From an uncultured Clostridia bacterium (GTDB lineage: Bacteria > Bacillota > Clostridia > Oscillospirales > Ruminococcaceae), in assembly GCA_947628405.1 (NCBI GenBank), contig CANQZR010000001.1, positions 956 through 64,955 on the forward strand: a stretch of DNA of 64,000 nucleotides, given 5' to 3'. The translations under genes were made by a program, and so were the position numbers. This document shows, in pieces, positions 5,937-58,560 of the stretch (positions are counted from its first letter, which is position 1; every line of letters starts with the position of its first letter). Below the pieces are notes generated by a model, which worked only from the letters and a program-made list of their open reading frames with translations, did not search any database and was not told where the DNA came from.

Positions 5937-7550
5937 TTATGTTCTTGCGTTTTTGTTATATTCTTTATCGTAATTTTGTTTTGCCTTGGTATCTGTATTA
6001 TCCGACGAAGGACGTCCTGCGCCGTCATTGTTTGTGTATGTATAAGTACTTTGGTAAGGTGTAAATACATCGTCAAGCCCCTGCAATTTTTCACTACGAC
6101 GCTTGTTTGTTTCGTCCTCGATATTAAGCCCCACCATACTGAAACAAGTTTCTCTTGACGCTCCAAAAGTAGTGAAAAGCACTTTTGCCAGCTCCTGCCG
6201 CTCTTCCGGAGAAAGTAACTCCGAATCGAGAATTTTTATTGTCGGCGCAAACTGCGGTTCAAGCCCGTTTTCTGCAATAATATTCTGATACCATTTCTGT
6301 ACAAATCTTTCTATCTGTTCCGTAATACTGTTTATAGTTTTCAGAAGTTCAGATAATGAAATAGAAGCCGTGCTTGCTCCGGTACTGCTTGTACTCATAA
6401 GGAAGCCGACCCCCAGTGAACTCAGTATTCTTTCACGGTAATTATTTACCGTATTTATATCAATAGTTCCCGTATCGCTGCACGAAACATATTTGATATC
6501 TTCCACGGTAGGACCTGCGGTAACAAGCACCATAGGTCTTTCAAACGCTTCCATAAGCATGACATGATTGTACTTCTGTTCCTCAAAATATTTCTCCCTG
6601 TTATGATCGCCGGAGACAAGTTCTTTCCTCATAGTCTGGACTATAAATTTTTTCGCTTTCACCTTTGCGTTGACCATATTTGTGTTATCGAACTGATCTA
6701 TCATCAATGCAGGATATAACGCGCGGAAAATAGGGGAAAGACCATATTTGCGCTTTTGATTGTTTATTCTTACAACGCCAGTCCAGCGATAATCAAGCCT
6801 TGCATACGGGTCATTGTCGATAAAAGCCTTATATATCTCAGGCGGATAGTTTGCTTTTATTTCTTCCCCGAGTTTCTGAAAGAAAAGACTTTCACGGTTC
6901 TTTCTGCGTTTTGGAGAACGACCTCCGAGTTTCGTGCAGAGTTTTTCCATATTAACAAGAACAACGGGTTCGCCGTTTATGTCATAATCGGATATTTCCA
7001 CAATTCCGAGAGGAAACCATGTGACGGTATATCTGCCGTCAACATTTCTGCAATAACATATGAAATTACCTTCCATATGTGCGGTAGACACCGCGTCTCG
7101 GATAAGACGTCCAAGATCAATCTCTGCATTGAAATCCGAAATTATCTGTTTGCTTTCGTTCAGCTTCGCAAGTTCCTTTTCGTCATCACCTACAGACACC
7201 GTATAGGAAGTGGTATATCCTGTGTTGACATTAGAATTTATTATCTCCTCAACTTTTCCGATAATATCGTTTTTGTTGACCTGTACACGCACAATTGAAT
7301 TTATTCTTAGAATTTTATCGAGATCGCTTTGTGCGTCAACAGCAAGCTCATTCAGCATTTTTGGCGTTGCAACAAGAGAAGTTCCGCAAAGTTCGGTAAG
7401 ATATGTGTTATATGCCATATTTTTCGGATCGTAACGAGAAATGGCATTTTCAATATCCTGTCCATGTTTTGCGGAAACTGTCATTATCGTAACATCAGTA
7501 TCCGGATCTTTGCCTATACATACACGATAATCTTCATTACTTTCTGTCAA
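5937..7550 (-). CDS. portal protein
   Basis: 537 aa, in canonical position after the large terminase (apart from the inserted PIN cassette) and before the scaffold. Family not verified. Confidence 0.65.
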   Translation of the reverse strand: MTESNEDYRVCIGKDPDTDVTIMTVSAKHGQDIENAISRYDPKNMAYNTYLTELCGTSLVATPKMLNELAVDAQSDLDKILRINSIVRVQVNKNDIIGKVEEIINSNVNTGYTTSYTVSVGDDEKELAKLNESKQIISDFNAEIDLGRLIRDAVSTAHMEGNFICYCRNVDGRYTVTWFPLGIVEISDYDINGEPVVLVNMEKLCTKLGGRSPKRRKNRESLFFQKLGEEIKANYPPEIYKAFIDNDPYARLDYRWTGVVRINNQKRKYGLSPIFRALYPALMIDQFDNTNMVNAKVKAKKFIVQTMRKELVSGDHNREKYFEEQKYNHVMLMEAFERPMVLVTAGPTVEDIKYVSCSDTGTIDINTVNNYRERILSSLGVGFLMSTSSTGASTASISLSELLKTINSITEQIERFVQKWYQNIIAENGLEPQFAPTIKILDSELLSPEERQELAKVLFTTFGASRETCFSMVGLNIEDETNKRRSEKLQGLDDVFTPYQSTYTYTNNDGAGRPSSDNTDTKAKQNYDKEYNKNART

Positions 7551-16597: not shown

Positions 16598-17224
16598 TCA
16601 CACTCCCTGCCCGAATATATCCCCATATAGTTCATCAATATCATTATCCTTGAGAACAAATTCTCCCTTGTTTTCAATAGGAACAAGTATTTTAAGAACA
16701 AGAGTCTTTGACCGTATCTTGTTGTCCCAAGAATACAGAGTTTTCCGTTGAATTTTTTCAACATATGAGAAATCACAAAGCTCCTCGAAGCATTTTGTGC
16801 TTGTAGTGCTTTTGCTTATTTTCAGCCAGTCGGATAAAGCTGTAAGGGATATTGAGAACTCTCCGTCACTGTCAGCAGCGACTTTTGCATAACAAAGCAC
16901 CGCAAGAGCCGTCCGGCGCACCGTAGAATTATCAAATCTTCTGATTATCTCTTCAACATCTTCTTTGCTTACCCGTACAGTAGTTTCATCTCCCCGAAGC
17001 CTGTGTTTGTCATTCATTACACGGGTAATTATTCTGTTAAGGTTGCAATCTATGTTAATGTGGTATTTTTTACCCCACTCAAATATTGTTTCTCTTATCC
17101 GGATATGTGATAAACCTTGCTGCTTGTACCATTTTGCAAGCATAAAGCATATCCTGTAAATGCTTTTTTCATTTATATTCTGTCCGTCAAGGTACTGTCT
17201 GACTTCCGAAACTTCATTGACCAT
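16598..17224 (-). CDS. hypothetical winged-helix-like DNA-binding protein, translationally coupled to the RNAP gene
   Basis: 11-nt overlap with the RNAP ORF. The segment ISLTALSDWLKISKSTTSTKCFEELCDFSYVEKI looks HTH-like. Confidence 0.35.
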   Translation of the reverse strand: MVNEVSEVRQYLDGQNINEKSIYRICFMLAKWYKQQGLSHIRIRETIFEWGKKYHINIDCNLNRIITRVMNDKHRLRGDETTVRVSKEDVEEIIRRFDNSTVRRTALAVLCYAKVAADSDGEFSISLTALSDWLKISKSTTSTKCFEELCDFSYVEKIQRKTLYSWDNKIRSKTLVLKILVPIENKGEFVLKDNDIDELYGDIFGQGV

Positions 17225-19676
17225 TTATAGCCTCCATTCTGTATTTTCTTCCGAGATATGTGTATTCACCGTCCGGATCTCTGCATGGCAGACACACCGG
17301 AACTTGTTTTATGTTCTGTACGATCCCGTCATCTGCGACTTTCCACATGAAACTTTTGCTTTTATTAGGGAAATCCTCATAGCATAACCGTACCGCATAA
17401 TTTGCGGTTTCACACTGCCCACAGGCTTCCGAACATCTTCTCCGATAAAGATCATAGTAATATTGCCAGTTGATTTCAAGACCTTCTCTGCGAAGTTCGG
17501 CGTCGCTGCGTTTTAATTCTTTCATTTCTACACAGAAATTCAGATATATTGCTTTTATTTTATCGTAGTTTTCCTGAGAAAACGGAATAGAATCATCTAT
17601 CATAATACGATAATCAAATTCCGGATATTTTCTTTTCCAACGAAAAGAACTCTCCCATTTTTCTATCTCCCAACAAAGCCTGTTCATATTGCTGTAGGCT
17701 TTGGAGAATTTTTTCATCTTTTTGTAGTAGTCCCCTGCGTACTTCATAAAATAGGGGAGCGGTTTTCCGTATTTTGCAATATTACGGGGAATGTTGTAAA
17801 TAATCCCTGTCTTTGCGGAATCAATTGCCTTGCCGTTGATTATCGACAATAATCCTACAAAATTTTCATAAACTGCTTTCTGTTCCTCGGTTTTCGGACG
17901 TTTGTTATGATAAGTAGTTGCACAGTTGCTTGTTTCACCGATAAGACTGTTCATTCCTCGGATAGCAACTTCCACTCGGTTCTCCTTTGTATCGGCTTCC
18001 GCAAGAGTAGTCGCCTTGTCCTCAATATCCAGAACAATGGCAGCGTTGCGGTCAACACCTTTCATCATAATTTCCTCGTTTACAACAAGTACAAGATCGC
18101 CGTCGTAATCTGCACCGTTGAGCCTTTGAGGAGTAATGCTCTTGCCGTTGACCATACAGACATTTGCAAGGTGAGAGCAGTATTTTTCCGTAAGTGCGTT
18201 GTTCACGCCTTTCAGAACAACGTGTTCCGACTTGCATATATGCGGATTTCGTTCTATAAGACGTTCACCGTCATATATTCCTTCGGCATCAAATCCGTAA
18301 AATTCATTGTTTTCAAGACACCCTACAGGTTCAAGACCGCCGATATGTTCCATAAGCATTATAAGATCCGGAGCAAGGAATTTAAAGGAAGCCCGTAAAA
18401 ACAACTTTCCGCATTTCATTTCGTCGATTTTTTTCTGTATAAGTGATATAACGTGATTTCTGACGCCGGATTCTTTTAACATCTGTGGGTTTTTCATAAG
18501 TGCTTTTACATATGGGTCTGTTGTAGAGTGACTGTCACACATTATCCCAAGGAAACAATATGTGTAAAAGATATCATTATCAATAACTTTCTGCACCCAG
18601 TCTATTGAAGTTTTTGCAAGTCCGGCGAAATTCTCATATTCAAGCTCCAAATCCTGTAATATCTGATAATTCCCACGGGTATAAAGCGGTTCTTCATAGG
18701 TGGAATAGTTCCACTTGGCAATGCCTATGCAGTGACCGTATTTTTCAAACATATCCCAATAATGTGACCAATCCCGTATATCGTTGTGTTTTGCAAAATA
18801 TTTGTAGCCTTTGTACATACTTTCACAAATTATCATCAAAGGATCGGCATCAGGACGGACGCTGTAACGTTCACCCCATATATCGGATATTTCAGTAACG
18901 CCTCGTTCCGCGAAGAAATCTGTGTAATTCATTTCGTGAATAACACCTTTGATGAACGGAGCGCGTATGATAGCGGAAGTCAATCCGTCCGTAACTCCAA
19001 GGATATCCCGTATCTCCTGCATAATAGCAGGGTGACATATCCCACAGCCGTCAAATACGTTTATTTCAATATCTTTCACGGTTTCCGCAAGGTCTTTTTG
19101 TATCCATTTACGGCGGACGCCGTTTTTGTCGGTAAATTCCGTTTCCTTGTCATAAGCGTATTTTATCCGCTGTCCGGGAATAGTCTTGTAAAGATCAGGG
19201 ACTACAACTATTTTCGGACGAAATTCCTCCAGACAGTGGCATGAGCTGAGCATAAGCCCTCTATAAGCGTAATATTTGGATAGAACAGTCTTATCAATTC
19301 GTATATCCATAGCGGTTATCTCGTTCAGACGATCAATTATGGAACTGTCCACAAAGCTGAGTATGGACGTCCGAACCATAGAAGCAGAACGTTCGCAGCA
19401 TTCAAAGTGCTGACCTCTAATATCAAGACCGTTCACTATAAGCTGTCTAAGTTCGTCCTTGCAGGATCTTCCGCCTTTGCAGTCAACAAATATTATGTAT
19501 TTGTTGAATTTTCTATAATCGCCGGTAATACGCCGTATCTGCCTGAACAGCATATTGTCCTGCTGATTTATGTAAAACTGTCTTTCTTCGTCAGCGGATA
19601 TCTGTACGTTGAATCCATTGTTAATAAGAAATCTGAACGGGAATTTCCGCACAACGTAAAGCGGAGGAGAAAACAA
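17214..19676 (-). CDS. YonO-like / RdRP-family (double-psi beta-barrel) single-subunit RNA polymerase
   Basis: 820 aa. IERNPHICKSEHVV is followed by NGADYDGDLVLVV (DYDGD codons at 18096-18110). These match the RNP...DbDGD signature of cellular RdRPs and SPbeta YonO, and resemble the beta-prime NADFDGD motif. Confidence 0.75.
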   Translation of the reverse strand: MFSPPLYVVRKFPFRFLINNGFNVQISADEERQFYINQQDNMLFRQIRRITGDYRKFNKYIIFVDCKGGRSCKDELRQLIVNGLDIRGQHFECCERSASMVRTSILSFVDSSIIDRLNEITAMDIRIDKTVLSKYYAYRGLMLSSCHCLEEFRPKIVVVPDLYKTIPGQRIKYAYDKETEFTDKNGVRRKWIQKDLAETVKDIEINVFDGCGICHPAIMQEIRDILGVTDGLTSAIIRAPFIKGVIHEMNYTDFFAERGVTEISDIWGERYSVRPDADPLMIICESMYKGYKYFAKHNDIRDWSHYWDMFEKYGHCIGIAKWNYSTYEEPLYTRGNYQILQDLELEYENFAGLAKTSIDWVQKVIDNDIFYTYCFLGIMCDSHSTTDPYVKALMKNPQMLKESGVRNHVISLIQKKIDEMKCGKLFLRASFKFLAPDLIMLMEHIGGLEPVGCLENNEFYGFDAEGIYDGERLIERNPHICKSEHVVLKGVNNALTEKYCSHLANVCMVNGKSITPQRLNGADYDGDLVLVVNEEIMMKGVDRNAAIVLDIEDKATTLAEADTKENRVEVAIRGMNSLIGETSNCATTYHNKRPKTEEQKAVYENFVGLLSIINGKAIDSAKTGIIYNIPRNIAKYGKPLPYFMKYAGDYYKKMKKFSKAYSNMNRLCWEIEKWESSFRWKRKYPEFDYRIMIDDSIPFSQENYDKIKAIYLNFCVEMKELKRSDAELRREGLEINWQYYYDLYRRRCSEACGQCETANYAVRLCYEDFPNKSKSFMWKVADDGIVQNIKQVPVCLPCRDPDGEYTYLGRKYRMEAINGQ

Positions 19677-22606: not shown

Positions 22607-22655
22607 TGTAAGACCTATTATAACATAGCTTTCTGGAGATGTCAAGAAAAAATTT

Positions 22656-22871
22656 TTACTTTTCCAAGCCTTTTAAAGTAGTCAGGGCAAGTTTTAAAAA
22701 TTCCGCCCGGCTGATATTTTTCCGGCTGCAAAATTCTGTTAAATCTTCCATTAGTTCCGGCGAAATATCCGCGATATACCTTTTATAATGTTCTTTGGCG
22801 TATTTAGCATTATATGCTGATCTGTTGAATTTATCATTTTTAGCAGGACGCTCAATATACTTTTTATCCAA
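22656..22871 (-). CDS. ribbon-helix-helix DNA-binding protein, paralog B
   Basis: 71 aa. Shares MDKKYIERP and the overall pattern with paralog A, and has the same TTG start context. Confidence 0.55.
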   Translation of the reverse strand: MDKKYIERPAKNDKFNRSAYNAKYAKEHYKRYIADISPELMEDLTEFCSRKNISRAEFLKLALTTLKGLEK

Positions 22872-22928
22872 TAGTAAACACTTCCTTTAAATTCATACAA
22901 CAAATACGAAACGTTAATAAAAAATTCA

Positions 22929-22957
22929 TTGACATTTTCACGTATGTGATGTATACT
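22929..22957 (+). promoter_or_regulatory. rightward promoter P2 (early operon)
   Basis: TTGACA, 17 nt, TATACT. Lies in the duplicated segment. Confidence 0.55.
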
Positions 22958-23320
22958 AATATCAAGATAAGACAAACGAGACCCGATAATGTAAGAGTAG
23001 TCGACAAGGCGGTAACAGACCGCTGGCAAATCCACCGGGCGAAGTCTTATAAATAGTATAACAAATTATCCCGACAATGTCAAGACAAAGTCGGATACAT
23101 ACCGCCGGATCCTATGGGGATCAGATCCGGAAAACCTCAATCCTGCCGGGAATAATCCCGAATCCGTCATAACCCGGACTTTGACGGACAAAATTATAAC
23201 CGCCGATTTTCGCCGGCGCGTAACCAGAAGCGGAAAAGTTTTTCGGGGCTTAACTTAAAACCCCACCCCACGCCGAAAGGCTTTGAAAAAAGTAAAATTA
23301 TATTTTAGGAGGATAAAATA

Positions 23321-25994: not shown

Positions 25995-26115
25995 TATTTA
26001 AACATAGTTTAATTTTAAGTGCAAAGTCAAAAGGCTTTGCACTTTTTCATTGCCAAAGCGGAAAAATTCAGTTATCCGGAATATCCGAACAACTTACCGA
26101 AAGCGAGGAATTTTT

Positions 26116-27195
26116 ATGGAAAAAACCATTACCGGCGTATATATCGACGTGGAAAAACTATCAAAGCACGTCCCCCAGATGAAAGCACGGGACGAAGCCA
26201 CAGCGGAGCTTTATAATACAATGGAAAATTACCGCTCCAAGGGCAGCGGAATGGACAGCATACCGCCGGAAATTTTCAACGCCCTTGTGTCTCACTTATT
26301 GGCGGAAGATCGGTTGAGGGACGCCATGATGATCGTTTGCGCTGCCAACTGGGGAATGAGATTTTCCGACCTTTCAAGAGTGAGATTTTGTCACATCTTT
26401 GACCGGAGCGGAAATTTCCTTGATAAATTTTCGCTTCCAAACGGAGAAAAAAAGACCCAGAAAGCGAATATTTATTTCAACAACGAAGCCACAAGGCTGA
26501 TGATCCGGCGGTATATAGCGGAAGATCCGCGCATAACGCCTATGGATTTTTTGTTTACAAGCAATTCGGGCAACGCTCCGGAAACTTCCTATCTTGAAAT
26601 TGAAGCGGAAGAAAAATACGGAAAAGTTATAAAAAAGCTAAAAAAACAAAATATTTTGCTTGAAAAGGAGCGGAAAAGTTTGATAAAATTGTATACAGAA
26701 AATCTTATTGACAGCGGAACATTTAAAACCGCGTCCGAGGAGATAGAAGCCAGAGCGGAACATATCCGAGGAGAAATTTCACGCACCGAGGAAAACAAGC
26801 GGAAATTTTTATCGGAAAATCCGGACAAAGCGAAAATAAAGATACAAGCCCCACTAAGCAGAACGGCAGCGGAAAATATCATAAAGTCCGCACTTGCGGA
26901 GATAAATGTACTTCCCAAGAACCGTACGGACAAAGGAACAGCCGCAACAACGGAAGAAAAATACAATACCCACAGCCTGCGGAAAACCTTTTCAGCACAG
27001 TTCCTTGAAACGGGCGCGAGATTGAGGGACGCCGGAAAAATTGACCTTGACAGGGACCTTATGCAGCTATTGCAGGACAAATTAATGCATAGTTCAATGC
27101 AGATCACCGACCGCTACAATAAGTATCAGCTGGAAATTTTCGGAACTATCTGCCGTAATATGAACATAGGACTTGAAGCCATACTTTCAGAGTGA
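26116..27195 (+). CDS. tyrosine recombinase / integrase with internal coiled-coil insertion
   Basis: Motifs GMRFSDLSRV (Arg I), HSLRKTF (His-x-x-Arg) and LMHSSMQITDRYNKY (His/Tyr). About 90 aa of Glu/Lys-rich insert lies between the boxes. Start MEKTITG after GCGAGGA. Confidence 0.75.
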   Translation: MEKTITGVYIDVEKLSKHVPQMKARDEATAELYNTMENYRSKGSGMDSIPPEIFNALVSHLLAEDRLRDAMMIVCAANWGMRFSDLSRVRFCHIFDRSGNFLDKFSLPNGEKKTQKANIYFNNEATRLMIRRYIAEDPRITPMDFLFTSNSGNAPETSYLEIEAEEKYGKVIKKLKKQNILLEKERKSLIKLYTENLIDSGTFKTASEEIEARAEHIRGEISRTEENKRKFLSENPDKAKIKIQAPLSRTAAENIIKSALAEINVLPKNRTDKGTAATTEEKYNTHSLRKTFSAQFLETGARLRDAGKIDLDRDLMQLLQDKLMHSSMQITDRYNKYQLEIFGTICRNMNIGLEAILSE

Positions 27196-29713: not shown

Positions 29714-30697
29714 CTAATTCTCAATAAATTCTTCCACGGAAGAACGTATAATATCCAGTCTCTTGTGAGTGTTAGTGTTGCTTGTAGTCTGTTTTGAGGA
29801 TGCCGAAACATACTCCTCCGGCATATCTGAAAAGAACGATAAACACCATTCCGCAAGCCGGGCGGAATTTTCAAATTTGTTTACAAAGCCTACATACGAT
29901 AGAAAATGCGTCTTTTTCATCATATTCTGTGCGGAAAATTTATCCGCTATCAGGACTTTTTTGTAAGCGTCAAAAACTATGTCGTAAACAGAGAGAATTT
30001 CCGCCTTGTCGCTTTCGGAAATTTCGATCTCTTCCATAAGCTCGGAAAAATGCTTTGCACTGTAGTCCGGATCAGTCTCATTAAGAGCCTGCCAAGTCTT
30101 GACAACGATCTCATCTTCCGGAATTTTTTTCAGGGCGTCGGAAGAAAACATAGCCCGGAAAATTTCGTGCTTTCCGATCTCTTTGATAACGTCCATACAG
30201 CTGTTCCGGCTGCGTGCAAGGTCAATTTTGGACATTGCCTTGCCGCTGTTTGAGCGATTGAAGAATAAACCCTCAATGGACGGATCAGCATTTTCAAGGA
30301 CTGCCATATCTATCTGGAAGTCGAGGATCTTCATCTGCAAGTCCTCGTCGAGCTTACGGAAAAATTTCCCGTTCAGCTTGTAGGGCTGCCCACGGAGAAT
30401 AATATCCGGCTCTTTTTCAAGACCGGAAAGAGCGTATTCATTGTTGATGTAGCGTATAAGAGAATTTCCTCTCTGTTTGCCGTCCAGAACGTCCCAACCG
30501 TTTTCCTTTGCGCTTATAAGGAACGGCTTCTGATATACAAGCACATCATACAGCAGACTGTGAATGTAAAGAGAGGACATTTTCTTATTCCATACAGCAC
30601 CACGCTGGATAGGATTATCAAAGTTTATCTGACCTTTTTGAAATCGTTTTACAAAGGAATTGACAGACCAGCTGTCACGGTAAGCGCGATAATTCAT
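29714..30697 (-). CDS. DUF262 (GmrSD N-terminal, ParB/Srx-fold) protein without DUF1524
   Basis: Motifs FDNPIQRGAVW, VLDGKQRGNSLIRY and FFNRSNSGKAMSKIDL. Confidence 0.7.
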   Translation of the reverse strand: MNYRAYRDSWSVNSFVKRFQKGQINFDNPIQRGAVWNKKMSSLYIHSLLYDVLVYQKPFLISAKENGWDVLDGKQRGNSLIRYINNEYALSGLEKEPDIILRGQPYKLNGKFFRKLDEDLQMKILDFQIDMAVLENADPSIEGLFFNRSNSGKAMSKIDLARSRNSCMDVIKEIGKHEIFRAMFSSDALKKIPEDEIVVKTWQALNETDPDYSAKHFSELMEEIEISESDKAEILSVYDIVFDAYKKVLIADKFSAQNMMKKTHFLSYVGFVNKFENSARLAEWCLSFFSDMPEEYVSASSKQTTSNTNTHKRLDIIRSSVEEFIEN

Positions 30698-30955: not shown

Positions 30956-32344
30956 ATGCCAAAGAACAGCGGAAAATCAAGACAGCGGAAGCAGAAGCCT
31001 ATCACCATTGATGTGGGCGGAAAAACCTATACTTTTGCAGGGATCGTGGAAACCAGATCCCAAGTAAAACTGATCCCGTTTACCGTTGAATCATATGTCA
31101 GGGACGTAATTAGCGGAGAGATCGACAGGGACACACTTATACAGCGTGAGCCGGATCAGTGGAGTACATACACCAAGTCAATGCTTATCTATGCAATGCT
31201 TATGGATAGGCAGATCGGCAATATCCTTATTGCCAAAGGACGTGACGAATCGAAAAACTATGAGATAGATTCCCTTATAGACGGCTTGCAGAGGACTACC
31301 GCAATTGTAGGATATGTCAACGGAGAATTTTCTTTAAGCAAGAAGATACCGGCAATAAACTGCCGTTTCAAGGACGAGGAAGAAAACTCAATAGAAGTGC
31401 CTTATGAGATAGGCGGAAAAAAATTTGACAAACTTCCGTCCGTCTTGCAGAAATCGCTGCTCAGATATCGCCTGACAGTATATGAATATGTGGACTTTGA
31501 GGACGAGGAGCTTGACGAGATCGTCAAGTGCGTAAACAGCGGAAAATCTCCTACAGTGTACCAGAAAATGCGGTTTACCCTCGGTTCGGATAATATGCGT
31601 ATGCTTCAGCCTTTGTGCGACAGTACCCTGTGGGAAGATATTCCCAACGTAAAAGCCAAGAATGACAGTATCCTTGCCTGCGTTATAAGAACGGCAATGC
31701 TCAATACAAGGTATGCCTTTAATAACCTTGGAGCCGGACAGATGAACGAGTTTGTTTCCCACTTCGGAGAAAATGTTACTCTTTCCAAGATCCGCGAGAC
31801 CGGAGAGCTTATTGAACAGCTTGCCGAAATAAAATGCGGAATGTCCGATGACGATATCGAGATATTCAGCGGTTGCTCCATACCGCATATTGTAATGAAT
31901 CTGAAACGTTACAACAGTATAGGGGAAAATTCCGTTTCCTACGGAGAATTTCTCCACGACTTCTTTTTGAGCGACGAATACCAGAAATTCTGTGATACCG
32001 AGGAGACCGGCAGCGGTGGATCTCAGTATTCACTGGAAAATGTCTCGGAGCGTCAGGCGATAATCGACGATTACCTTGACAGTTATTTTGAAAATTCTGA
32101 AAATACGGAGGGAGAAGGCGATGACCGGAAAGGAACAGAAACGACTTCTGGAAGAACAGAAAACAGCTATAGCGGAAGAGACGGAACGAATGGCGGAACG
32201 GATAGAACGGGAGCATATGACGATATCTCTATGCAGGGATATATCGGAGCTTACGGACAAACGCCTGAAAATTTTGAGTTCGGGGAAAACTATCCTGCAC
32301 AGATTTTATATCGAGACGTCTCAGCTCCTCGGACTTCCACTTAA
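30956..32344 (+). CDS. DUF262 (ParB/Srx-fold) protein; the 3-prime ~220 nt overlap the next gene out of frame
   Basis: Motifs IQREPDQW, LIDGLQRTTAIVGY and VKCVNSGKSPTVYQ. The last ~75 aa are low complexity (GTETTSGRTENSYSGRDGTNGGTDRTG). Confidence 0.65.
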   Translation: MPKNSGKSRQRKQKPITIDVGGKTYTFAGIVETRSQVKLIPFTVESYVRDVISGEIDRDTLIQREPDQWSTYTKSMLIYAMLMDRQIGNILIAKGRDESKNYEIDSLIDGLQRTTAIVGYVNGEFSLSKKIPAINCRFKDEEENSIEVPYEIGGKKFDKLPSVLQKSLLRYRLTVYEYVDFEDEELDEIVKCVNSGKSPTVYQKMRFTLGSDNMRMLQPLCDSTLWEDIPNVKAKNDSILACVIRTAMLNTRYAFNNLGAGQMNEFVSHFGENVTLSKIRETGELIEQLAEIKCGMSDDDIEIFSGCSIPHIVMNLKRYNSIGENSVSYGEFLHDFFLSDEYQKFCDTEETGSGGSQYSLENVSERQAIIDDYLDSYFENSENTEGEGDDRKGTETTSGRTENSYSGRDGTNGGTDRTGAYDDISMQGYIGAYGQTPENFEFGENYPAQILYRDVSAPRTST

Positions 32345-32846: not shown

Positions 32847-33698
32847 ATGGAAAAAATGTCAAATTCCACAGTAAAAGAGTACCTCGAAAGAAAAAGGAAG
32901 AAAGCCGAGAGCATACAAAACAATATTCCCGAGACTATCACCATAAACGCAGATATCCTTAAAACGGCACCCTATTCCCAAAGACCGGTAAGTAAGCGGT
33001 GGGCGGAGGAAATAGCAGCTAAATTCGATCCCAAACTTCTCGATCCGCTGACGGTGTCCTACAGGGACAGAAAATATTTTGTGATCGACGGACAGCACCG
33101 ACTTTACGCCATACGGAAACTTTTCGGCGACAAACAGCTTGTGAATTGTAAAGTCCTGCACGGCTTAACGGAACAGCAGGAAGCTGAAATGTTCGTAAAA
33201 ATGAATACCTGTGAACGATCCCTTAACTACGCCGACGAAGTAAGGGCTTTAGCCTTTTCCGGCGATAAAATGATAGACGCTATCAACGGAATATGCGCGT
33301 CCAACGGCATAGAGTTCGGATACGAACAGGGCAAAAGAGGAAAGAAAGACAGCCGTATAACCGCCCTTAAAACTCTCACTGATATATATGAAAAGATCGG
33401 GGCGCAGCAGACGGAAAGAATTATCAAAATACTCAGTACAACTTGGAGCGGACAGTCGGAATCACTTTCGGCAGTTATGCTTTCCGCTATGTCGTGTATT
33501 ATGGACCTTTACGGGAATGAATTAGAGGATAAAACTTTCACCAAGAAACTTGCCGGAATAGACCCTACATTCCTTGTTACCAAAGCACGAAACGATACAG
33601 TCACAAACGCAGCCGTTTCCGTCAGACTTGCAAGAATAATCGTAAATTACTACAATAAAGGCGCAGGGAAAAAGCTCCCGTATCGCTTCGGAGTATAA
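32847..33698 (+). CDS. DGQHR-motif ParB/DndB-like protein
   Basis: LDPLTVSYRDRKYFVIDGQHRLYAIRKLFG. RBS AGGAGGA. Confidence 0.65.
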   Translation: MEKMSNSTVKEYLERKRKKAESIQNNIPETITINADILKTAPYSQRPVSKRWAEEIAAKFDPKLLDPLTVSYRDRKYFVIDGQHRLYAIRKLFGDKQLVNCKVLHGLTEQQEAEMFVKMNTCERSLNYADEVRALAFSGDKMIDAINGICASNGIEFGYEQGKRGKKDSRITALKTLTDIYEKIGAQQTERIIKILSTTWSGQSESLSAVMLSAMSCIMDLYGNELEDKTFTKKLAGIDPTFLVTKARNDTVTNAAVSVRLARIIVNYYNKGAGKKLPYRFGV

Positions 33699-35447: not shown

Positions 35448-35476
35448 TTGACTTTGGGTAAAATAGATGTTATAAT
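35448..35476 (+). promoter_or_regulatory. promoter of the ATPase/TOPRIM cassette
   Basis: TTGACT, 17 nt, TATAAT, followed by RBS AGGAGGG. Confidence 0.6.
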
Positions 35477-35498
35477 AGATTTAGGAGGGATAAATACT

Positions 35499-36824
35499 AT
35501 GAAGATACTTAGTGTAACAATAAGCGGCTTTAAAAATCTTCAGAAGTCAAAAATCAATTTGGGTCGCATTGTTGCGATCGTATCGCCGAATAACTACGGT
35601 AAATCTAATTTTCTGGAAGCAATTGATTTTGGAATTTATTTTATCTCTGCAAGTGAAAAAGTCAGAAAAACTATGATGAGTTATGTAGGCGGTATTCCTA
35701 TTAATAATTTACTTGCCATGGAAGATTTCTTTTTCGAGATAGAATTTGATAATGGAACAAATGATGAATACAGATATGTAAAGTACGGATATTCATTTTC
35801 ATGGTATCGTGACGACGGCTCCGGTCAAAGAATAACGGACGAATGGCTTGAAGCTCGTCCCGGTCAAAACGTAAAATATACTAAATTTTTAGATCGTAAG
35901 TCCGGCAAGTATAAAAAAAAGAAATATACAAACTCTTATAGAACTATCAGGCCAAACAGCAGTCAATTATCAATTGATTTATTATCGGCGATGAATGAGA
36001 TTGCGATCAATCCGATAATTAAATCAATAAAACATCTTGATTATAATGTGTGTTCGTCTCTTGATCTGGACGATCGCTTTCAGCCAATGCCGATTGACTA
36101 TGTTTCAGAAAATGATGAAATAGGATCTGTATGTTTTGATGATCGTGATGTGCCGAGGGCGATATATAAGTTAAAACAGATGTATCCGGAAAAATATCAG
36201 TTGTTTATTGAAGCAATACACACCCTTTTCCCTGATTTTTCCGACATAACAGTTGAATCTTATTCAATATTTAAAAACTATTCTCCCGAAATATCGCTGA
36301 TAGTGTCTAAGAATGGCGAATCAGACGCAGTTAAAGAAGATATTCCGTTTAAAATCAGAGATGAAATATATAGGATATACGTTAAGAGTAAGAGTATTAA
36401 TCAGCCGATGGATATTGCAAGAATGTCCACGGGAACAAAGCGTATATTCTGGCTGCTTGCAAACATTTTCATTGCAAGCACAAAAAAAATGTGCTTTATT
36501 GGCGTGGAGGAGTTGGAAACAAGTATACACCCCAGATTGCTGAAAAATCTGCTTGAGATCCTTGATGAAGCACTTGAAGATACATCTATAATAATATCAA
36601 GTCATTCTCCGTTTTTAATTCAATATATTAAACCGGACAAAATTTATGTTGGATGTCCTAATGATAATGGGATAGCTTTGTTTAAACGTTTGAAAAACAC
36701 AAAATCAAAGCAGTTTATCGGTATGGCAAAAGATAATGGTATGTCATTAGGCGAGTATATTTTCGAGCTGCTTTCGGGAGATCCTGACAATGAAAATATA
36801 TTATCTTTTTATCTGGAGGGATAA
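35499..36824 (+). CDS. ABC-type (AAA_15/AAA_21-like, OLD/PARIS/AbiL-type) ATPase
   Basis: Walker A VSPNNYGKSN, signature-like MSTGTKRIFWLL, Walker B MCFIGVEELETSIHP, H-loop IISSHSPF. Confidence 0.7.
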   Translation: MKILSVTISGFKNLQKSKINLGRIVAIVSPNNYGKSNFLEAIDFGIYFISASEKVRKTMMSYVGGIPINNLLAMEDFFFEIEFDNGTNDEYRYVKYGYSFSWYRDDGSGQRITDEWLEARPGQNVKYTKFLDRKSGKYKKKKYTNSYRTIRPNSSQLSIDLLSAMNEIAINPIIKSIKHLDYNVCSSLDLDDRFQPMPIDYVSENDEIGSVCFDDRDVPRAIYKLKQMYPEKYQLFIEAIHTLFPDFSDITVESYSIFKNYSPEISLIVSKNGESDAVKEDIPFKIRDEIYRIYVKSKSINQPMDIARMSTGTKRIFWLLANIFIASTKKMCFIGVEELETSIHPRLLKNLLEILDEALEDTSIIISSHSPFLIQYIKPDKIYVGCPNDNGIALFKRLKNTKSKQFIGMAKDNGMSLGEYIFELLSGDPDNENILSFYLEG

Positions 36825-36827
36825 TAT

Positions 36828-37523
36828 ATGCCGGAAAAATATGTAAAAGGATTGGCTTTTATTTTTGAAGGTGCTACAGAAAAAGTTTTCTATCATACAA
36901 TGTTAGAATATTTTGTCGGTAAACATTGTGGATATAGCTTAAATACGCAAATAAACGGAAAAACAGGAGAATCGTTCGATACTATATCTTTTGAAGATAA
37001 GAAAATTCTTGTAATGTTTAATAACGTCGGTACTATTACACAAGTAACTCATTCCGGCGAATGGTTCAAAACAAGGTGTTATGAGAGAAACAAAGGGCTC
37101 AGGTGGACGGTTTTTCTGTGTTATGACACAGATTCTTATCAAAACAATATCACCAAGTTTCATGAGGGAGACTGGAACGAACTCAGAAAAACCATTCAGA
37201 AATGCAATGATCCAACTATAATAGATCTTGCGGCAAAAGCTGATATTGAAGATATTATGTTATCGGATGCGGAAGGTGTATTTAAATATTTAGAAATAGA
37301 GCCTATACAGATCCCGAAAAGGAGTAATGGGAAAAATAAAATGAGACAAATTTTTCGTACGAAAGGACGTGGGTATACATATCACGAAGGTAAAAGAGCA
37401 GAACCGCTTATAAAATCGTTAAATATGGAGAAAATCATATCTTCGCTGCCCGAAATACCATTTTGTGAAATTGAATCCGAATTTGAAAATGCATTTTCTT
37501 CCGATGATAACAGAATTACATAA
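36828..37523 (+). CDS. TOPRIM-like (RloB / DUF4276 / DUF4435-type) putative nuclease
   Basis: N-terminal LAFIFEGATEKVFY (TOPRIM Glu) and VFLCYDTDSYQ (DxD). Starts 3 nt after the ATPase stop. Confidence 0.5.
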   Translation: MPEKYVKGLAFIFEGATEKVFYHTMLEYFVGKHCGYSLNTQINGKTGESFDTISFEDKKILVMFNNVGTITQVTHSGEWFKTRCYERNKGLRWTVFLCYDTDSYQNNITKFHEGDWNELRKTIQKCNDPTIIDLAAKADIEDIMLSDAEGVFKYLEIEPIQIPKRSNGKNKMRQIFRTKGRGYTYHEGKRAEPLIKSLNMEKIISSLPEIPFCEIESEFENAFSSDDNRIT

Positions 37524-37567
37524 CGGCAGCTAAAAATATTGATATAATTAAAAATTATATATTTTAT

Positions 37568-37595
37568 CTCGAATATTGTTTCGGGATATTTTTTT
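37568..37595 (+). terminator. rho-independent terminator of the ATPase/TOPRIM cassette
   Basis: CTCGAA / TTCGGG stem followed by ATATTTTTTT. Confidence 0.5.
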
Positions 37596-38807: not shown

Positions 38808-38883
38808 TGGGATATAGTCAAGCGGTAAGACAACGGATTTTGGCTCCGTCATTCCGGTGGTTCAAATCCACCTATCCCAGCCA
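38808..38883 (+). tRNA. tRNA-Gln (anticodon TTG), CCA encoded
   Basis: Hand fold: acceptor TGGGATA/TATCCCA, anticodon stem ACGGA/TCCGT with loop TTTTGGC, T arm GGTGG-TTCAAAT-CCACC. Confidence 0.8.
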
Positions 38884-39363: not shown

Positions 39364-39448
39364 GCAGGTGTGGCGGAATTGGCAGACGCAGCGGACTTAA
39401 AATCCGCTTCTGAAAAGAGTGTGAGTTCAAATCTCATCATCTGCACCA
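39364..39448 (+). tRNA. tRNA-Leu (anticodon TAA), long variable arm, CCA encoded
   Basis: Hand fold: acceptor GCAGGTG/CATCTGC, anticodon stem GCGGA/TCCGC with loop CTTAAAA, T arm GTGAG-TTCAAAT-CTCAT. Confidence 0.8.
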
Positions 39449-39480
39449 GAGTAATTATTTTTTGTGAAAGGAGAATTGTT

Positions 39481-39981
39481 ATGTATGAGTATGAAATGAT
39501 TGTGAGAGGGCGTCGTATACGCTATGAAGCATTTGAAAATAAATGGGTCAAGGGTTATTACGTTTGTCTTCGTGAGAATAAGCATTTGATTATAACCGGT
39601 GAAGCTACATTCAACGGATTCAAGGAGAATATAGTTTCATATGAAATAGTCCCAGAAACATTTGGACGTTATACGGGTTTACTTGATAAGGACGGAAACA
39701 AAATTTTCGAGGGGGACATTATTGAAATTCACTTTGATACAAGTATCACTAAACCGCTTGTTGTAAAATATGGAGTTTATAGTGATATAGACGATTATTG
39801 GGGCAATAATTACACAGTAGGTTTTTATCTTGATGGCGGAAAATCTCAGCAAAATATTTTAAGTTGTCAAATCGCAGAAATGCCATTCAATGATCCAAGT
39901 TTTCTGTTGTATAAAAGGAATAACAGATTGAAGGTGATCGGGAATATTTACGATAACCCCGAATTATTGGAAGGAGAATGA
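39481..39981 (+). CDS. YopX-family protein
   Basis: GRYTGLLDKDGNKIFEGDII and C-terminal VIGNIYDNPELLE. RBS AAAGGAGA. Confidence 0.75.
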   Translation: MYEYEMIVRGRRIRYEAFENKWVKGYYVCLRENKHLIITGEATFNGFKENIVSYEIVPETFGRYTGLLDKDGNKIFEGDIIEIHFDTSITKPLVVKYGVYSDIDDYWGNNYTVGFYLDGGKSQQNILSCQIAEMPFNDPSFLLYKRNNRLKVIGNIYDNPELLEGE

Positions 39982-57360: not shown

Positions 57361-58560
57361 ATGAATGGCAGTAAGGAGGACAAATTGAGCAACGGAATAA
57401 AAGTATTAAGTCTCTTTGACGGCATTTCTTGTGGACGTGTTGCTTTGGAACGTGCAGGAATACCTGTTGAGGAATACCACGCCTTTGAAATTGATAAATA
57501 TGCTGTTCAGGTATCGCAGAAGAATTATCCCGACATTGTACATCACGGAGATGTATTTGACGGAGATTTCACGCAGTTCAGGAGTTACGACTTACTAATT
57601 GGTGGCAGCCCCTGCACGTACTGGTCAATAGCCAAAAACAATCGTGAAACAACACCCGACGGCATAGGCGGTCAGCTGTTTATGCAGTATGTCCGAGCCT
57701 TAAAAGAAAGTGGCTGCAAGTATTTCTTGTATGAGAACAACTACTCAATACATAAGAATATCAAAGATTTTATATCAAATCAGCTTGGCGTACAGCCTAT
57801 TATGATAAATTCCGCTCTTGTTTCCGCACAACAGAGAAAACGCTGCTACTGGACGAATATTCCCAATATTACACAGCCGGAGGATAGGAATATTATGTTG
57901 AAAGATATTCTTGGAAGCGGTGTTTCTTGGCAGGATAAAAGCTACTGTGAAGTCAGCGAAGTATGGTTGCAGAGCCTGTTATTTTGCAAAAAAGGTCACG
58001 GGTTCAACAAAGGAGGCGTAAAAAAGGACAAATCGCCAACGCTTACTGCACAAGGCAGTTGGCAGAATAATAATTCTATTGCAGAACCCGTAGGCGTAGC
58101 CCAACGTGGACGATATATCGAAAGTGGAAACCGTTCACAGAAATGTGACGGCGGTACGGAACAATTTATCGAAGCAAGAAAAGACAGTAAAAGCAATTGT
58201 CTTACAACAGTTCAGAAAGATTCGATGGTAGCCGTTCCGATAGACACATCAAAGCCTGTAAGAATAGGTAGCTTCGGCAAAGGCGGACAAGCCCAGTGTA
58301 TTTATTCAGTACACGGCAAATCGGTCAATATTGTAGGAAACGGCGGTGGCGGCGGTGCAAAAACAGGTCTTTACAAAATAGACTTGCCGGACGGAGATTA
58401 CATAATCAGAAAGATGACACCGATCGAAGCGGAACGCTTACAGACTTTGCCTGACAATTACACAGAGGGAATATCAAATACTCAGCGTTACAAGTGTATC
58501 GGCAACGGCTGGACGGTTGATGTTATCGCACATATTCTGAAAAACATAAAAAGAGCGTGA
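57361..58560 (+). CDS. dcm: DNA cytosine-5 methyltransferase
   Basis: LSLFDGISCG, GGSPCTYWS, FLYENN, QQRKRCYW and IGNGWTVDV. An alternative TTG start lies at 57385. Confidence 0.85.
   Translation: MNGSKEDKLSNGIKVLSLFDGISCGRVALERAGIPVEEYHAFEIDKYAVQVSQKNYPDIVHHGDVFDGDFTQFRSYDLLIGGSPCTYWSIAKNNRETTPDGIGGQLFMQYVRALKESGCKYFLYENNYSIHKNIKDFISNQLGVQPIMINSALVSAQQRKRCYWTNIPNITQPEDRNIMLKDILGSGVSWQDKSYCEVSEVWLQSLLFCKKGHGFNKGGVKKDKSPTLTAQGSWQNNNSIAEPVGVAQRGRYIESGNRSQKCDGGTEQFIEARKDSKSNCLTTVQKDSMVAVPIDTSKPVRIGSFGKGGQAQCIYSVHGKSVNIVGNGGGGGAKTGLYKIDLPDGDYIIRKMTPIEAERLQTLPDNYTEGISNTQRYKCIGNGWTVDVIAHILKNIKRA

Follow-up and report, generated by a model that had tools for sequence, protein, structure and literature searches.

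The window analysed here, the whole 64,000-nucleotide stretch of contig CANQZR010000001.1 from an uncultured Clostridia bacterium, is a phage genome, and its positions 35448–37595 hold a compact two-gene cassette encoding an ATP-binding cassette (ABC) ATPase, protein A, and a small TOPRIM-type partner, protein B. We read this cassette as a phage-borne accessory ABC ATPase and TOPRIM module under a host-type promoter, which probably serves to exclude competing phages or other mobile elements, most likely through abortive infection or superinfection exclusion. This defence or exclusion role is inferred from homology and genomic context. On sequence grounds, the cassette appears to form, together with a second family described below (A2), a divergent sister branch of the AbiL/HEC-01/DUF4276 group. 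The initial annotation of this region had proposed an ABC ATPase and TOPRIM pair carried by a phage, and both the profile matches of the proteins and the phage genes recognised with PHROG profiles bear this out; the promoter, protein motifs, 3-nt spacing and open reading frame (ORF) sizes that it listed are likewise all present.

The comparison of both proteins with Pfam and PADLOC profiles, suggested in the initial annotation, returned AAA_15/AAA_21, AbiLi and HEC-01A for protein A and nothing at E <= 1 for protein B. Protein A carries a Walker A motif (SPNNYGKS, residues 29–36), an ABC signature (MSTGTKR, 309–315), a Walker B motif (VEELE, 336–340) and an H-loop (SSHSP, 367–371), and 33 homologues show no variation in the residues of these motifs, those of the D-loop included. 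Its Pfam matches, AAA_21 (2e-20, 74 bits) and AAA_15 (2e-18, 68 bits), both exceed the cut-offs. The top PADLOC match is AbiLi (4.7e-27, 93 bits), a partial alignment covering profile positions 51–250 of 326. HEC-01A, the ATPase of the PADLOC candidate system HEC-01 that pairs it with the small TOPRIM protein HEC-01B (Payne et al. bioRxiv 10.1101/2024.01.29.577857), is matched over nearly its full length (PDLC04178, 3.4e-26, 90 bits, positions 8–343 of 399), and further HEC-01A models also match, with modest scores. The next PADLOC matches are two profiles named AriA, which are probably generic, since their lengths of 304 and 373 are those of Pfam AAA_21 and AAA_15. Against the NCBIfam equivalogs MAD3, PtuA, RecF and Rad50, protein A falls far below every cut-off (52.9 bits for MAD3, where 420 are required).

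The AlphaFold (AF2) model of protein A (pLDDT, or predicted local distance difference test, 85) points in the same direction. Foldseek placed PtuA (from Septu and retron I-A), SMC heads (target-normalised template modelling, TM, score TMt 0.62–0.64) and GajA closest to it, with E values of 1e-11 to 1e-14, and no AriA chain was found among the 50 best neighbours; the predicted fold is thus SMC-head/PtuA-like. Sequence and profile searches of the PDB with protein A and with A3 retrieved local Walker A and signature segments only. Taken together, protein A has the features of an active ABC ATPase that belongs to the AAA_15/21 group associated with defence, and its profile scores suggest no close tie to any named family.

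None of the models in Pfam, PADLOC, NCBIfam and PHROGs matches protein B at E <= 1. Even so, it belongs to a sizeable family of its own, with at least 220 clusters in a set of 5.8 billion proteins, where every one bears the label 'hypothetical' and lacks a Pfam annotation; in a set of 1.84 billion, 53 representatives reach E <= 1e-30. Two motifs stand out, FIFEGATEK (residues 11–19) and YDTDS (residues 99–103). Within the family E14, G15, T17 and E18 are each conserved in at least 90 % of members, Asp100 and Asp102 are invariant, as are the cysteines Cys84 and Cys98, and D115, W116, E141, D142, G168, K169, Y185, H186 and G188 are also conserved; the candidate catalytic residues would be E14/E18, D100/D102 and E141/D142. 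A C-terminal helical domain bears a YHEGxRA motif. The AlphaFold model of protein B (pLDDT 90.6, predicted TM score 0.88) runs through strand b1 (7–13), helix a1, a beta-hairpin (36–55), b2 (58–66), a2, b3 (93–98), a3, b4 (130–133) and five helices. The signature of TOPRIM domains is a glutamate in the loop after the first strand and a DxD motif after the third (PMC12065111), and in the model E14 follows strand 7–13 and D100/D102 follow strand 93–98. The order b1-a1-(hairpin)-b2-a2-b3-a3-b4 is compatible with TOPRIM.

Direct profile matches within the family are sparse and weak: DUF4276 in 9 of 45 members, OLD-like_TOPRIM in 2, the individual HEC-01B models in 1 to 3 each (best 1.9e-3) and AbiLii in one (4.7e-4), with no DUF4435 match in protein B or in any of the 45. 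A deep profile search with protein B opened a more informative route, through a second tier of proteins of about 200 residues (E 1e-17 to 1e-22). Aligned to one another, these proteins make up family A2, and hhalign comparison of A2 with the protein B family profile (A1) gave a probability of 99.96 % (E 5e-39) over 190 columns. Relative to A2, the beta-hairpin of protein B, about 21 residues long and located at roughly residues 34–56, is an insertion. A2 is far better connected to known families: among 50 members, DUF4276 is the commonest Pfam match (33, best 3e-8), followed by OLD-like_TOPRIM (22) and RloB (11), the PADLOC models AbiLii and HEC-01B are each matched by 33, and DUF4435 by a single one (at 0.0037). 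Some A2 relatives also carry precomputed PF14103 or PF13707 labels. This transitive profile homology, in agreement with the motifs and topology, argues for placing protein B, as a divergent member of the TOPRIM superfamily, in the DUF4276/RloB/AbiLii/HEC-01B group. Searching the PDB by sequence and profile with protein B and A2 returned no related solved structure. The A2 genes themselves sit after a gene for an ATPase of 426–428 residues that is collinear with protein A at 32 % identity (E ~1e-74), and therefore both genes diverged together. Outside the genome set, a gene for a 'hypothetical protein' at 65749–66309 of PLSDB plasmid NZ_CP095378.1 (Bacillus cereus, 538 kb) aligns with 87 % of protein B at 23.5 % identity (E 1e-8); it is probably a TOPRIM gene of the sister family.

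The two genes travel as a unit. An ATPase gene lies directly upstream of the protein B homologue, on the same strand, in 74 of 80 loci from species-representative genomes; of the six remaining loci, five are partial matches to protein B and one is at a contig edge. Of 67 homologous loci, 64 have a stop-to-start spacing between -8 and +7 nt, and the identities of A and of B to the copies in the window co-vary across loci (r = 0.83). Exact protein look-up added five contexts in which an AAA_15/21 ATPase of 437–444 residues directly precedes the protein B homologue. The A-B pair is obligate. It appears to have no third component, because across about 45 loci the two ORFs closest to it on either side, 147 in all, spread over 143 different Pfam families.

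Tight coupling and co-variation of this kind are also what one would see in an addiction module of the toxin-antitoxin type, in which the TOPRIM protein would be the toxin and the ATPase its neutraliser, stabilising the carrier element without a primary anti-phage role. Mobility and patchy distribution fit such a module, PARIS has been described as a pair resembling type II toxin-antitoxin systems (review PMC13064643), and a weak integrase-like ORF in the window leaves room for a temperate lifestyle. However, the idea overlaps heavily with defence, as toxin-antitoxin-like behaviour and abortive infection are compatible; it was phage resistance that led to the discovery of those related systems that have been tested; and many chromosomal copies lie amid metabolic genes with no obvious mobile-element markers. 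We consider a pure addiction role unlikely.

For the favoured role in exclusion, a mechanism can be proposed by analogy with PARIS, the best-understood template, which works through a sensor-scaffold ATPase, a released TOPRIM protein and tRNA cleavage. In the cassette, an oligomer of protein A would bind protein B and hold it inactive. The ATPase would sense a cue of infection, and ATP-dependent triggering would then free or activate the TOPRIM effector. The effector would in turn cut nucleic acid, be it tRNA, another RNA or DNA, at a metal site formed by E14 and D100/D102, with a contribution of E141/D142. The A-B complex, the nuclease activity, its target, the trigger and the defence phenotype are thus all deductions. 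That a phage can carry such functions has a precedent in P2 old, annotated as a phage-borne lysogenic-conversion ATPase-nuclease. A different form of the same idea, an uncharacterised defence family, sister of AbiL/HEC-01, whose target or trigger is unlike those of the known ABC-TOPRIM systems and whose TOPRIM effector is set apart by a lineage-specific hairpin insertion, the cysteine pair and the YHEGxRA motif, seems to us a minor possibility.

Turning to distribution, the protein B family was found in 94 of 185,579 species representatives (0.05 %), scattered over four or more phyla. The hosts are Oscillospirales, Lachnospiraceae/Butyrivibrio, Sphaerochaeta and Coriobacteriia, together with single metagenome-assembled genomes of Bacteroidales and Chloroflexi, and come mostly from gut and rumen. 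INPHARED holds no record with the family and PLSDB one weak plasmid match only. This distribution bears on whether the cassette could instead be an offensive or counter-defence nuclease, used by the phage to degrade host nucleic acids or immune components during infection. In favour of that role, the cassette lies in the plus-strand arm with the genes for replication and nucleic-acid metabolism, ParB/DUF262-like genes adjoin it and tRNA genes of the phage follow 1.3–1.9 kb downstream. Yet the family is overwhelmingly chromosomal (94 species, against two IMG/VR contigs and no INPHARED record), the opposite of what a phage weapon would lead one to expect, and we hold this alternative to be decidedly unlikely. 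On L013 (IMGVR_UViG_3300036951_000683), one of two other viral contigs, the protein B homologue at 6001–6656 is split over three frames, a sign of either a pseudogene with frameshifts or a fault in the assembly; upstream of it the ATPase gene is intact (64.5 % identity).

The genes that flank the cassette in other genomes include strong matches to defence proteins, namely JetA, DpdF, a CBASS cyclase with SMODS-NUDIX, PsyrT, AbiEi and AbiLi (8e-75), and PDC-S01 occurs in four flanks. Many chromosomal copies are found among ordinary metabolic genes with no obvious markers of mobile elements. On an Oscillospirales-type contig (L006/L007, 10798–14813), a tyrosine integrase, two TIR genes (TIR_2 and ThsB_TIR) and a gene of the metallo-beta-lactamase fold adjoin the cassette, with an rve transposase just upstream, in what looks like a small mobile defence island. 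In a Sphaerochaeta chromosome (L005, 5084–6388) the neighbour is a second, distant AAA_21 ATPase gene (E 4e-6 to protein A). Three flanking ORFs across the genome loci are the strong AbiLi matches, and phmmer with protein A picked up ABC-like neighbour ORFs in L056, L069 and L084; different ABC-ATPase systems may therefore lie side by side.

These neighbourhoods also speak to the proposal that the cassette is a non-autonomous accessory of a restriction-modification or methylation system, as are RloAB in type I restriction-modification loci, Mad3-Mad4, and HEC-01 within Hma. Relatives of protein B, DUF4276 (Mad4) and RloB, are found in such settings, HEC-01 was discovered embedded in another system, and the window does encode a DNA methyltransferase (57361–58560). 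That gene, however, is 20 kb from the cassette; the 147 nearest neighbours contain no recurrent partner and restriction-modification is not among their 25 most frequent Pfam/PADLOC families; and protein A reaches just 52.9 of the 420 bits set for MAD3. Such dependence on a methylation system is, of all the alternatives, the one we find hardest to credit. Variable context, patchy spread and foreign GC content identify the cassette as autonomous and horizontally mobile.

The phage itself was identified from its PHROG matches, among them a primase-helicase (291 bits), a DnaE-type DNA polymerase (853), an exonuclease V-like helicase (593), a methyltransferase and a protein of a 'tail fiber' family. 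It has no DNA relative in INPHARED; its polymerase shares 43 % identity with that of Brevibacillus phage Sundance. Exact copies of the cassette proteins occur on seven short metagenomic contigs, and the four that were retrieved (L001–L004) show the same phage context. Among the 49 ORFs of the window, the cassette genes rank fourth and third lowest in GC content (z = -1.9 and -2.0), and the genes on either side lie at z = +0.3 to +0.9. This low GC fits horizontal acquisition. Flanking direct or inverted repeats that could be insertion scars amounted to short AT-rich chance matches, and phages that carry the 211-residue gene found downstream of the cassette (at most 48 % identity) have no other gene of the neighbourhood in common.

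The proximity of replication genes (43.8–51.4 kb) raises the idea of a DNA repair or recombination pair serving phage replication, in the manner of RecF with RecR or of SbcCD and gp46-47. The ATPase does have weak N-terminal matches to RecF, Rad50 and SMC, and RecR carries a TOPRIM domain. Those matches, however, cover the Walker A segment only and lie far below the cut-offs, protein B matches neither RecR nor Toprim_4, and 6 kb separate the replication genes from the cassette, which is transcribed as a unit apart. Its sporadic occurrence, in 0.05 % of species, its variable context and its foreign GC are equally hard to reconcile with a part in core replication. On the sub-cut-off matches, the missing RecR/Toprim_4 match and the sporadic distribution we rejected a RecF/RecR-like pair, and we rate any repair role as very unlikely.

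Two tRNA genes, tRNA-Gln(TTG) at 38808–38883 (+) and tRNA-Leu(TAA) at 39364–39448 (+), lie 1.3–1.9 kb 3' of the cassette and are the only Rfam elements in its flanks. A mechanically called ORF (39370–39981) overlaps tRNA-Leu, and its true start is probably further downstream. Phage tRNAs rescue from the tRNA cleavage by the TOPRIM protein of PARIS. On the less likely reading of the cassette as an uncharacterised defence family with a target or trigger of its own, protein B might be a tRNA-directed nuclease to which tRNA-Gln(TTG) and tRNA-Leu(TAA) of the phage give self-immunity; any such link between these tRNAs and the cassette is speculation.

Several observations weigh against the exclusion role and were set beside the evidence for it. 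At the level of the protein, the initial annotation had looked to structure prediction for a TOPRIM fold in protein B. The placement of the glutamate and DxD residues and the strand order agree with one, but Foldseek comparison of the model with PDB and BFVD returned no TOPRIM neighbour, the best matches being generic alpha/beta folds with TM < 0.45. Those to MTAN/PNP, Arf/Ras and peptidyl-tRNA hydrolase, all below this TM score and with very large root-mean-square deviations, are uninformative and do not count as evidence of a nucleosidase or GTPase. No PADLOC defence model matches protein B at E <= 1. Likewise, when A1 and A2 were compared by hhalign with P2 Old as a single sequence, the result was not significant, with a local alignment alone (also not significant) that lays the vEGxTE motif of the family on VLLVEGKTE of P2 Old, at residue 394. 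At the level of genomes, viruses seldom carry the family (of 2.9 million IMG/VR contigs, 2 do), defence genes are a minority of the neighbours (raw counts, with no control set for enrichment), and no close relative of the phage that could reveal gain or lack of the cassette was found, either by DNA comparison with INPHARED or by searching for the two upstream genes in IMG/VR and JGI metagenomes. Finally, the first HEC-01 system to be tested gave no protection; a second representative of HEC-01 did protect, against one coliphage or more.

Within the window, the cassette is laid out as its own transcription unit. A sigma-70-type promoter on the plus strand (35448–35476; TTGACT, 17-nt spacer, TATAAT, with a TG-extended -10) agrees with the consensus at 11 of 12 positions. 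The Shine-Dalgarno sequence AGGAGGG (35483–35489, +) lies 9 nt 5' of the ATG at 35499 that opens gene A (35499–36824, +), assigned from Pfam, PADLOC, motifs and model as a 441-residue SMC/Rad50-like ABC ATPase of the AAA_15/AAA_21 type. A 458-residue version with a TTG start appears in the mechanical ORF list; this start falls within the -35 box, and the 441-residue ATG reading is therefore the sensible one. Gene A ends with TAA at 36822–36824 and, after a gap of 3 nt, gene B (36828–37523, +) starts with ATG at 36828 and encodes the 231-residue putative TOPRIM protein supported by family profile, motifs and model. The Shine-Dalgarno sequence of gene B, GGAGGG (36815–36820, +), sits within the last codons of gene A, and this position, together with the spacing in homologous loci, suggests that the two genes are translationally coupled. 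Each protein has a conserved family behind it that runs to hundreds of sequences, so genes A and B are real.

Downstream, a hairpin resembling an intrinsic terminator (37565–37595, +) has a 9-bp stem, a 6-nt loop and a U-run. With three G-C pairs in the stem, and a 77-nt tail that folds at -14.5 kcal/mol (z = -2.3), a weak hairpin terminator after gene B is plausible. Upstream of the cassette no terminator came to light, and the description of the unit as insulated in the initial annotation is therefore only half true: it has its own promoter and a weak hairpin at its end. In shuffled sequence comparisons, neither promoter-like sites in the region (13 found, 14.7 expected) nor terminator-like ones (3 found, 2.2 expected) exceeded chance. 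Sites with at least 11 of 12 consensus matches number 13 on both strands of the 64-kb window, 7 of them on the plus strand, where they sit at operon starts (25583, 30746, 35448 and 37620). A near-consensus promoter for each unit is the general style of this phage.

Other features of the window concern the phage at large. Perfect or near-perfect sigma-70 promoters cluster on both strands at 22645–23083 and recur at the later operon starts 25583 and 30746 (+). The cluster lies at the switch between a minus-strand arm (1–23 kb) and a plus-strand arm (24–64 kb), and near 23 kb the sign of the GC skew reverses. An 820-residue ORF at 17214–19676 (-) matches the two-barrel polymerase family RdRP of Pfam (PF05183, 1.3e-18, 67.5 bits, cut-off 23.8, positions 48–572 of 582) and may encode an RNA polymerase of the single-subunit phage type, similar to that of YonO or crAss. 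A 381-residue ORF at 26050–27195 (+) has a weak Phage_integrase match (29.6 bits, cut-off 27.1); the phage may be temperate, or this ORF may be a resolvase-type tyrosine recombinase. Upstream of the cassette, the ORFs at 29714–30697 (-) and 30956–32344 (+) are borderline GmrSD_N/DUF262 matches (33 and 29 bits, cut-off 33.2) and that at 32847–33698 (+) is ParB-like/DUF6551. The segment from 29.7 to 37.5 kb, cassette included, may be a part of the phage given over to accessory or conflict genes.

ABC ATPase and TOPRIM pairs are among the most widespread designs in bacterial immunity, with mechanisms known for PARIS, Gabija and OLD only; the workings of AbiL, HEC-01 and the pairs of the DUF4276/RloB type have yet to be explained. 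The two families described here escape Pfam, PADLOC, NCBIfam and PHROGs, and today's pipelines for annotating defence genes probably miss them in anaerobes of gut and rumen and in their phages. Profiles for both proteins would fill this small annotation gap, and the cassette offers a compact phage-borne representative (441 and 231 residues) with its native promoter for mechanistic work. No current view is overturned, and the finding would not surprise a specialist.

Compared with known systems, the cassette is of one broad kind with AbiL, HEC-01, MADS3-4, RloAB and PARIS. AbiL, PARIS and MADS3-4 are listed as ABC and TOPRIM defences, and each resembles the cassette in part. HEC-01 likewise has two genes, the first for an ABC ATPase and the second for a small TOPRIM protein that stands alone, and its ATPase HEC-01A is matched by protein A. 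However, protein B has no HEC-01B match at E <= 1, its hairpin of about 21 residues is absent from the sister family that does match HEC-01B, and HEC-01 was found embedded in another system, at Hma loci, while the cassette of the window stands in a phage and not in a defence locus. AbiL of Lactococcus, whose mechanism is unknown, is also a two-gene operon of an ABC ATPase and a small RloB/OLD-like TOPRIM protein, and AbiLi heads the PADLOC matches of protein A. Even here, the match is partial and stops at 93 bits, where genuine AbiLi-like neighbours score 8e-75, and AbiLii is not matched by protein B at E <= 1.

The remaining systems are further removed. PARIS combines an ABC ATPase with a separate TOPRIM effector and is often found on phages and satellites, but its effector AriB, of about 35 kDa, belongs to DUF4435, whereas protein B has 27 kDa and no DUF4435 match, and for this lack we rejected membership in PARIS. 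Its ATPase AriA forms a hexameric scaffold; the AriA profiles that protein A matches are of generic length. In Mad3-Mad4 of MADS, similarly, the ATPase is of the AAA_15/21 type and its TOPRIM partner comes from DUF4276; protein A stays at 52.9 bits against the 420 of MAD3, protein B has no DUF4276 match, and no methyltransferase gene is adjacent. P2 Old (OLD class 1), itself a phage-borne exclusion gene, and GajA share the combination of ABC ATPase and TOPRIM chemistry, but fuse both domains in one polypeptide of about 580 residues, where the window has two ORFs separated by a stop codon and a 3-nt gap. Gabija further requires the helicase GajB, and the cassette has no conserved third gene; as two unfused genes without GajB, it was rejected as a member of OLD or Gabija.

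Accordingly, the label PARIS/AbiL/OLD-like given in the initial annotation holds for the AbiL side, where the nearest relatives, AbiL, HEC-01 and DUF4276, are reached through the sister family, and not for PARIS, OLD or Gabija; its suspicion of a distinct variant was well placed. The cassette does not belong to any named family, because its TOPRIM partner lacks the match, or the fusion to the ATPase, that defines each of them. What is known in it is the design of an ABC ATPase paired with a TOPRIM protein; what is new is a previously unmodelled branch of that design, marked by the beta-hairpin insertion, the cysteine pair and the YHEGxRA motif.

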